From: Escherichia coli O157:H7
Lineage (GTDB): Bacteria > Pseudomonadota > Gammaproteobacteria > Enterobacterales > Enterobacteriaceae
DNA: 64,000 bases
Assembly: GCF_013167455.1 (NCBI RefSeq)
Contig: NZ_CP038328.1
Strand: one strand, 5' to 3'
The first letter of the stretch is position 1, and each line of letters opens with the position of its first letter. A program made the position numbers. This document shows, in pieces, positions 34,801 through 35,945 of this stretch.

Positions 34801-35945
34801 CTGAACATTATGGTGTTCCGGTTATCCTGCACACTGACCACTGCGCGAAGAAACTGCTGCCGTGGATCGACGGTCTGCTGGACGCGGGTGAAAAACACTT
34901 CGCAGCTACCGGTAAGCCGCTGTTCTCTTCTCACATGATCGACCTGTCTGAAGAATCTCTGCAAGAGAACATCGAAATCTGCTCTAAATACCTGGAGCGC
35001 ATGTCCAAAATCGGCATGACTCTGGAAATCGAACTGGGTTGCACCGGTGGTGAAGAAGACGGCGTGGACAACAGCCACATGGACGCTTCTGCACTGTACA
35101 CCCAGCCGGAAGACGTTGATTACGCATACACCGAACTGAGCAAAATCAGCCCGCGTTTCACCATCGCAGCGTCCTTCGGTAACGTACACGGTGTTTACAA
35201 GCCGGGTAACGTGGTTCTGACTCCGACCATCCTGCGTGATTCTCAGGAATATGTTTCTAAGAAACACAACCTGCCGCACAACAGCCTGAACTTCGTATTC
35301 CACGGTGGTTCCGGTTCTACTGCTCAGGAAATCAAAGACTCCGTAAGCTACGGCGTAGTGAAAATGAACATCGATACCGATACCCAATGGGCAACCTGGG
35401 AAGGCGTTCTGAACTACTACAAAGCGAACGAAGCTTATCTGCAGGGTCAGCTGGGTAACCCGAAAGGCGAAGATCAGCCGAACAAGAAATACTACGATCC
35501 GCGCGTATGGCTGCGTGCCGGTCAGACTTCGATGATCGCTCGTCTGGAAAAAGCATTCCAGGAACTGAACGCGATCGACGTTCTGTAAGTCATTCCTTTC
35601 TGCTTATCTCAAGGCCCGCTCTGCGGGTCTTTTTTTCGCCAAAAGCAAAATTGCCTGATGCGCTATGCTTATCAGGCCTACACGTATCCTGCAATATATT
35701 GAATTTGCAGGTTTTTGTAGGCCGGATAAGGCGTTCACGCCGCATCCGGCATGACAAAGCGCACATTGATATCTGTCTGAGCCCCGCTCTGCGGGGATTT
35801 TTTTGCCAAAAGCAAGGTGATTCAGATGAGAAATCTGTGATCTATTTGGCAAAATTATGCTTTATTGTTTACCCTTGTCAGACTGCCCGTCATAAGGCGG
35901 CGGAGTGTATTTCTCCATTTTGAGTCAGTTGAAAAGGAATATTGA

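Follow-up and report, generated by a model that had tools for sequence, protein, structure and literature searches.

In published descriptions BIME-1 (alias RIP or RIB), a bacterial interspersed mosaic element (BIME) built of repetitive extragenic palindromic (REP) sequences, is a single-copy element that lies outside genes at the 3' end of a transcription unit and is present in some strains and absent from others. We have analysed such an element between fbaA and mscS in a stretch of 64,000 nucleotides from Escherichia coli O157:H7 (NCBI RefSeq assembly GCF_013167455.1, contig NZ_CP038328.1; hereafter the window), where it is bracketed by two copies of the fbaA terminator, T1 and T2. The fbaA copy has the position, the variable presence, the REP types and their orientation, the L linker and, in diverged form, the right outer motif of the described elements. 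It differs from them in that its left outer motif lacks the outer half and the T tract lies inside the flanking duplication, and two genomes hold two tandem copies at this locus. Overall, our results indicate that BIME-1 probably integrated at the intrinsic terminator of fbaA in an ancestor shared by E. coli, E. whittamii and Escherichia sp. E1V33, and that the target was thereby duplicated on both sides of the element.

Several other systems resemble this locus in part. A doublet of inverted REPs with a spacer, as in the fbaA BIME-1, is also the form of REPINs, the REP doublets moved by the REP-associated tyrosine transposase (RAYT). The target-site duplications of transposons and MITEs (miniature transposable elements with inverted repeats) are another close likeness, since the direct repeats abut the element ends and the empty sites are single-copy, as at fbaA, fbp and metE-ysgA. 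In addition, the two outer motifs of BIME-1, as read from the sequences, are imperfect inverted repeats of each other. However, transposon target-site duplications are usually far shorter and of fixed length, whereas the flank repeats of BIME-1 measure 17–25 bp at other loci and about 37–41 bp at fbaA, and they coincide with a hairpin. Tandem back-up terminators and REP stabilisers in 3' untranslated regions (UTRs) share with fbaA two hairpin/U-tract signals in series, REP hairpins between them and 3' ends at both; unlike these, the second terminator at fbaA would be an insertion-made copy of the first, and it is absent from a third of strains. Finally, CRISPR spacer integration by Cas1-Cas2, which is aided by integration host factor (IHF) in E. 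coli, duplicates a palindromic repeat. There, attacks at the two borders of a whole and often palindromic unit of 28–37 bp leave it flanking the insert on either side, and an IHF site is involved. This last likeness would be one of geometry only; no Cas proteins or CRISPR array take part at fbaA.

The fbaA terminator is found on both sides of a BIME-1

The region matches E. coli O157:H7 at 100%, and the whole arrangement is held in the 357 bp spacer between fbaA and mscS (Table 1). The hairpin of T1 begins 23 nt past the fbaA stop codon. When the left and right halves of the spacer are compared, the best local alignment sets AGGCCCGCTCTGCGGGTCTTTTTTTCGCCAAAAGCAA against AGCCCCGCTCTGCGGGGATTTTTTT-GCCAAAAGCAA, with 33 of 37 aligned positions identical and a distance of 168 bp from start to start. 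Its score is 52, while 2,000 shuffles of the spacer halves gave 15.8 +/- 2.2 and never more than 28. Each copy consists of a GC hairpin, a T tract and then (C)GCCAAAAGCAA. A sequence-only reading of the window had proposed two direct repeats of ~45 bp around a REP element of ~120 bp after fbaA. The two repeats and the element between them are indeed present at this place; their sizes, on the other hand, should be corrected to about 37 nt (about 41 nt with a gapped left extension) and ~130 bp.

Both copies show the arrangement expected of an intrinsic terminator, that is, a GC-rich hairpin directly before a U tract, and a terminator scan calls both terminator-like (T1 with stem and T7, T2 with stem, A and T7). 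T1 folds into a 9-pair stem (-14.1 kcal/mol) with U7 directly after it; the stem of T2 has 6 pairs (-11.6 kcal/mol), and A and U7 come next. T1 is the original intrinsic terminator of fbaA. The version of the NC_000913.3 annotation used here lists no REP or terminator features at the fbaA-mscS site, and Tandem Repeats Finder reports no tandem repeat in the window, where the unit number is only 1.2.

The element between the two terminators is, by its sequence, a BIME-1. Two pairs of inverted-repeat arms were found in it (35668-35682 / 35716-35730 and 35721-35734 / 35737-35750), and the linker is matched by the Rfam family ES036 with 47.3 bits (gathering score 37.6), beside a partial match to naRNA4. 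Matches to Rfam microRNA families and AS-pc01 (E 0.2-0.9, far under the gathering scores) were dismissed as noise from palindromes. At the left end, the outer half TGAGACTGATGA of the usual outer motif is missing, while the inner 13 nt are kept at 11/13.

Table 1. Features of the fbaA-mscS region in coordinates of the window.
Feature	Position	Strand	Basis or content
fbaA coding sequence (class II fructose-bisphosphate aldolase)	34509..35588	+	open reading frame list; RefSeq annotation of identical DNA
T1, first repeat copy	35612..35648	+	hairpin 35611-35631, T7 35630-35636, then CGCCAAAAGCAA
GCCAAAAGCAAAATT, overlaps end of T1	35638..35652	+	inner half of usual left outer motif GACAAACGCAAAAYT at 11/13 (19 BIME-1 left flanks aligned)
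BIME-1, ~130 bp	35649..35779	+	inverted repeats; Rfam; shared L-linker 17-mer; fuzzy REP matches
Y REP	35653-35681		fuzzy match to Y consensus
L linker	35682-35716		17-mer TGCAATATATTGAATTT, exact match to BIME-1 copies elsewhere
IHF-like site in L linker	35692-35704	-	ATTCAATATATTG against IHF consensus WATCAANNNNTTR, 1 mismatch; low-specificity match, predicted only
Z1 REP, inverted	35717-35751		fuzzy match to Z1 consensus
Right outer motif	35752-35779		present but diverged
T2, second repeat copy	35780..35815	+	hairpin 35782-35796, A, T7 35798-35804, then GCCAAAAGCAA
Single-nucleotide polymorphism site ggtgatNcag	35822	+	T in window; 7 nt downstream of repeat
mscS coding sequence, downstream neighbour, same strand	35946..36806	+	open reading frame list; RefSeq annotation

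Alleles with and without the element

We have examined the spacer in 5,426 complete E. coli genomes. The long allele, that is, terminator-BIME-terminator, is found in 3,725 of them (~69%), while about 1,700 (~31%) carry a short allele with one terminator and no BIME; the rows of the short allele were sampled rather than inspected in full. The sequence-only reading had named the comparison with strains lacking the REP as its check, and the outcome agrees with it: the sampled short alleles are 167-168 bp below the long allele, which is exactly one unit (the BIME plus one terminator copy). Their single terminator has the T1 sequence and is joined directly to the sequence that lies 3' of T2 in long alleles. 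The short allele is also carried by two divergent genomes labelled E. coli.

A third state, with two BIMEs and three terminators, was seen in a single E. coli genome, SW070917 (2.2 units of 167 bp). Three terminators are likewise present in Escherichia sp. E1V33 (2.2 units of 169 bp), where the hairpin of the third copy is identical to T1. Head-to-tail tandem units are thus found in these two genomes and not in the window with its 1.2 units. E. whittamii has the long allele with the same junctions, and its T2 hairpin is destroyed. As both E. whittamii and Escherichia sp. E1V33 have the element too, the insertion is older than E. coli.

These data bear on the view that T1 and T2 are two independent terminators, alike only through the constraint on hairpins, with no duplication involved. 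A GC hairpin with a T tract is indeed a constrained shape, and the two hairpins differ at 3-4 positions. However, the resemblance does not stop at the hairpin, which was the outcome that the sequence-only reading had named as fatal to it; the shared sequence extends through the T tract and GCCAAAAGCAA, with 18 consecutive identical bases past the hairpin in K-12. The alignment score far above the shuffled maximum, the exact loss of one unit in short alleles and the T1-identical third hairpin of E1V33 also speak against independent origins. As the tail is shared and the length difference is exactly one unit, we regard this view as refuted, and its probability as negligible.

For the outgroups, an MscS scan of species-representative genomes gave 57 readable fbaA-mscS spacers, 53 of which belong to genera other than Escherichia (Citrobacter, Klebsiella, Kluyvera, Enterobacter, Kosakonia, Buttiauxella and others). 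None of these 53 contains a REP of the fbaA type or a second terminator copy, and most are 174-194 bp long with one hairpin and a T tract. The short spacer of E. coli (190 bp) is colinear with these single-terminator spacers (about 190 bp), and on this sequence comparison the single-terminator layout is therefore ancestral. As a separate observation, the spacer of Intestinirhabdus alba (L029) reaches 405 bp through an insertion near mscS that resembles the enterobacterial repetitive intergenic consensus/intergenic repeat unit (ERIC/IRU), a different repeat family in the same spacer.

Although the empty layout is ancestral, it seems that not all present short alleles have kept it from the start. 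At position 35822, G, A and T are each seen in long and in short alleles. Because each of the three bases pairs with both allele states, the unit has probably been lost repeatedly, as far as sequence can tell. In strain S56, the short allele has both flanks identical to the O157-type long allele, and its MscS protein is that of K-12. The simplest reading of the repeated loss is recombination or slippage between T1 and T2, by which 168 bp units would be deleted or added; the two-unit arrays are the reciprocal gain. The unit number varies among genomes between 0, 1 and 2. A crossover within the shared tail regenerates the exact ancestral sequence, so the present short alleles are a mixture of never-occupied and re-emptied sites that look the same by sequence. 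Both extreme views were discarded: that all short alleles are secondary deletions is ruled out by the colinearity of the short spacer with other genera (190 against about 190 bp), and that all are primary is ruled out by S56 and the polymorphism pattern.

Similar flank duplications at other BIME-1 loci

A metagenome scan with the 17-mer of the L linker returned 120 stretches, which gave 19 distinct BIME-1 loci after duplicates and atypical loci were removed. Each left flank was compared with its own right flank; when flanks of mismatched loci were paired as a control, the score averaged 13.6 and reached 22 at most, with a 99th percentile of 21. Seven of the 19 loci lie above every control, fbaA with 52 and six others with 29-46; two more are borderline (20-21) with the repeat at the expected positions. 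The layout of an intact BIME-1 is hairpin, TGAGACTGATGACAAACGCAAAAYT, Y REP, L, Z1 REP, CATGAACAAAGCGCACTTTGTCAACAATCTGA and the same hairpin again, with the duplicated copies abutting the outer motifs.

Locus-specific hairpin duplications are seen in the metagenome contigs L088, L092, L106, L110, L111, L129, L137, L157 and L176. They are 17-25 bp long, usually comprise a terminator stem-loop and, with 36-37 bp at fbaA, do not have the fixed length of a target-site duplication. The hairpins are alike within a locus and different between loci, and the loop sequences show that they are direct copies. At most duplicated loci the T tract stands on one outer side only (at one locus, an A tract on the opposite side). 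Empty sites with a single hairpin are available for three loci, namely fbaA, fbp and metE-ysgA. In the occupied contig L129, both flanks of the BIME at the 3' end of fbp carry aacgccggattgctccggcgtt, while E. coli SCPM-O-B-9504 (L212) has one hairpin and then a T tract. At metE-ysgA, cgggtgg...ccacccg occurs twice in the occupied contig L137 and once in E. coli (L224).

Within these 19 loci, the duplication at fbaA is thus an instance of a flank signature general to BIME-1. The proposal that the arrangement is the footprint of a REP insertion or recombination that duplicated the terminator is hence supported by the one-terminator, BIME-less alleles in ~31% of E. coli, by the 53 spacers of other genera, by like flank duplications at further BIME-1 loci, for two of which empty sites exist, and by the 3' ends that both copies yield in K-12. 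In the literature examined, which leaves aside the main BIME papers of the 1990s, no hairpin or terminator duplication at BIME-1 is described; as these papers lie outside it, the novelty of the general pattern is unproven, and a prior description is possible.

The same comparison bears on another order of events, in which slippage first made tandem terminators and BIME-1 was later inserted between them, unrelated to the duplication. Tandem terminators are common, and the two-unit arrays show that slippage does occur at the fbaA locus. Against this order, no terminator-terminator allele without a BIME was found in the sampled rows from the 5,426 genomes or in the outgroups. In addition, many coincidences would be needed, since 6-8 further BIME-1 loci show like flank duplications and two of these have single-hairpin empty sites. 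We therefore consider slippage before insertion improbable.

A few further observations were made at these loci. The loop of the fbp terminator is inverted between lineages (attgct against agcaat) with the stem unchanged (L129:11770-11800 against L212:600-630), a loop flip such as strand switching at a palindrome would be expected to produce. In the BIME-1 at L118:130-330, as at fbaA, the left outer motif is truncated and follows immediately on a full hairpin with T tract; there is no matching right copy. By eye, TCTNA immediately precedes the hairpin at 3 of 10 loci, too weak a target preference to claim.

Transcript ends at the two terminators

The 3' ends were taken from the K-12 Term-seq tables (PMC7815308, supplementary file 1) and placed by the printed 50 nt upstream and 10 nt downstream. 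In K-12, the T1 end lies at 3070119 / 3070118 on the minus strand, at the 5th-6th U, and is classed as primary for fbaA (Adams et al. 2021, PMC7815308), with 160,555 reads in LB at an optical density (OD) of 0.4, 54,607 in LB at OD 2.0 and 120,854 in M63 (PMC7815308). The T2 end lies at 3069950 on the minus strand, at the 6th U, with 44,902 reads in LB at OD 2.0 only, and is classed as orphan (PMC7815308). That is, 3' ends fall inside the U tract of T1 in three of three conditions and of T2 in one of three, in the K-12 orthologues rather than in the O157 strain. The claim that fbaA is followed by two terminators in tandem is thus in line with published 3' ends in both U tracts. T1 is the main working terminator of fbaA, and in K-12 a genuine 3' end also exists at T2 in stationary phase, which reflects either termination of read-through or stable BIME-containing fragments ending at T2. 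Among the sampled Escherichia genomes, T1 is almost invariant and T2 varies.

In the proposed course of events, the first hairpin at usual BIME-1 sites would lose its T tract, and transcripts would have to cross the BIME. At fbaA the duplication includes the T tract, which is unusual among the BIME-1 loci sampled, and the first copy therefore stays a complete terminator. T2 may then catch the read-through of T1 and so shield the promoter region of mscS.

On the other hand, T2 could be a neutral footprint without a role, its Term-seq peak coming from REP-stabilised decay fragments of the read-through RNA. The T2 hairpin has been lost in E. whittamii, ~31% of E. coli genomes do without T2, and its peak is listed in stationary phase only and classed as orphan. 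The computed fold of the read-through RNA also contains five stable hairpins (-81.5 kcal/mol, z -4.4). Against neutrality, the 3' end sits on the 6th U just past the hairpin, as intrinsic termination predicts. Moreover, the stem of T2 in E. coli is kept through a two-sided change relative to T1 (G.U to C-G), and one haplotype of E. coli (L217) has an additional pair in it. We take neutrality as a possibility of limited weight.

Upstream of fbaA, an ERIC/IRU repeat (GTGAATCCCCAGGAGCTTACATAAGTAAGTGACTGGGGTGAGCG...) fills the pgk-fbaA spacer (34340-34485 of the window), and the K-12 Term-seq data place an orphan 3' end at 3071314 inside this repeat in all three conditions (PMC7815308).

How the duplication may have arisen

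If BIME-1 entered the fbaA terminator as proposed, the duplicated target would be about 37-41 bp long and would comprise the hairpin, the T tract and 12 further bases. Breaks in the target on either side of the hairpin would leave a hairpin on both sides of the insert, with the right-hand break at fbaA lying about 20 nt further downstream. For such geometry, either the two strands of the target would have to be opened on different sides of the hairpin or the target would have to be copied twice; an enzyme that, once the palindrome is extruded, cuts the hairpin of each strand at a fixed side would produce it. Alternatively, the junctions may have formed by template switching at short matches, namely target GCCAAAAGCAA with BIME GACAAACGCAA, and target ATCTCAAGG with the BIME end plus target ATCTGAGG.

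At the second junction, target ATCTCAAGG does resemble the BIME end plus target ATCTGAGG. The short matches at both junctions suit two readings: insertion by template switching, with re-entry into the target upstream of the hairpin, or an ordinary insertion whose left junction later underwent gene conversion. In the gene conversion model, an ordinary insertion duplicated the hairpin only, and conversion from the right copy later put the T tract and CGCCAAAAGCAA in place of the left outer motif, ending at the CAAANGCAA match and restoring a full upstream terminator. Several facts favour it: the left motif is missing exactly where the T tract and CGCC sit, while its inner 13 nt match at 11/13; other loci duplicate the hairpin only; and the copies in E1V33 look homogenised. 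However, this model requires an additional step, for which one end offers only about 9 nt of homology, and no intermediate allele, with the hairpin followed by the full left motif, was seen in any Escherichia sampled. This course is unlikely in our view, though less remote than slippage before insertion. A homologous stretch in other genera reads GCCATTTCAA or similar, so part of the repeat-tail sequence predates the insertion.

Going beyond fbaA, BIME-1 might be a MITE-like element that enters terminator hairpins by breaks at both hairpin feet, or by an equivalent template switch, and duplicates the whole hairpin, with fbaA as a variant in which the break lies beyond the T tract. We offer this wider model only tentatively.

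Returning to integration of BIME-1 at the fbaA terminator with duplication of the target, several points weigh against it. We know of no transposase or mechanism that duplicates a whole hairpin. According to published work, transposases of the IS200/IS605 type, which are relatives of the REP-associated transposase, leave no target duplication. The duplicated segment at fbaA (37-41 bp) is about double that of other BIME-1 loci (17-25 bp), and its last 11 nt resemble the BIME outer motif, so part of the repeat is possibly derived from the element and not from the target; neither insertion model fully explains this long, motif-like duplication. As for the samples, E. albertii, E. fergusonii and Salmonella lie outside the outgroup set, and the BIME-1 loci are only 19, all picked through one exact 17-mer. 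In addition, T2 is dispensable, because its hairpin is destroyed in E. whittamii, and stable decay fragments, not termination, could be the source of its Term-seq peak.

Other repeats in the window

A perfect 10 nt inverted repeat (35801-35810 / 35845-35854, TTTTGCCAAA / TTTGGCAAAA) joins the tail of the terminator to a block upstream of mscS. This block (TGTGATC..TTTGGCAAAA...TTGTTTACCCTT) shows conservation among enterobacterial genera, and Citrobacter too has the GCCA...TGGC pairing. It may be a regulator site or a promoter element. A sigma-54 reading of TGGCA-N-TGC upstream of mscS was rejected, since its spacing fails (9, while 10 is needed).

A decayed BIME-1 in the opposite orientation lies at 59960-60095, with the Y REP (60062-60087) intact and the linker and Z1 REP degraded. 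Its outer motif (ACAAAGCGCACTTTATTAACAATCT, minus strand) abuts the terminator gcgcttcggcgccttttt at about 59960-59977, where no flank duplication is evident. Other REP clusters, at 3100-3310, 7620-7760 and 62720-62780, are tail-to-tail pairs with short linkers and are BIME-2-like or atypical.

Implications

In a third of E. coli, fbaA ends with one terminator, while in two thirds it ends with a terminator, a BIME-1 carrying an IHF-like site and a second terminator before mscS. The long and short alleles are thus a natural pair for testing the effects of BIME-1 and of a back-up terminator on mRNA 3' ends and on the downstream promoter. The fbaA locus itself is a modest, clean natural polymorphism, and the wider flank signature is the more interesting lead.

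To our knowledge, the spread of REPs and BIMEs has had no experimental demonstration. If the hairpin-duplication signature is real and reproducible, it would be unlike that of any characterised bacterial transposase and would offer a handle on the movement of REP/BIME sequences, although with the small sample both the pattern and its novelty are uncertain. It would say where these sequences land, namely in terminator stem-loops, and would constrain how they do so, by breaks or switches at both hairpin feet. It would also explain why BIME-1 is positioned in 3' UTRs just upstream of a working terminator.
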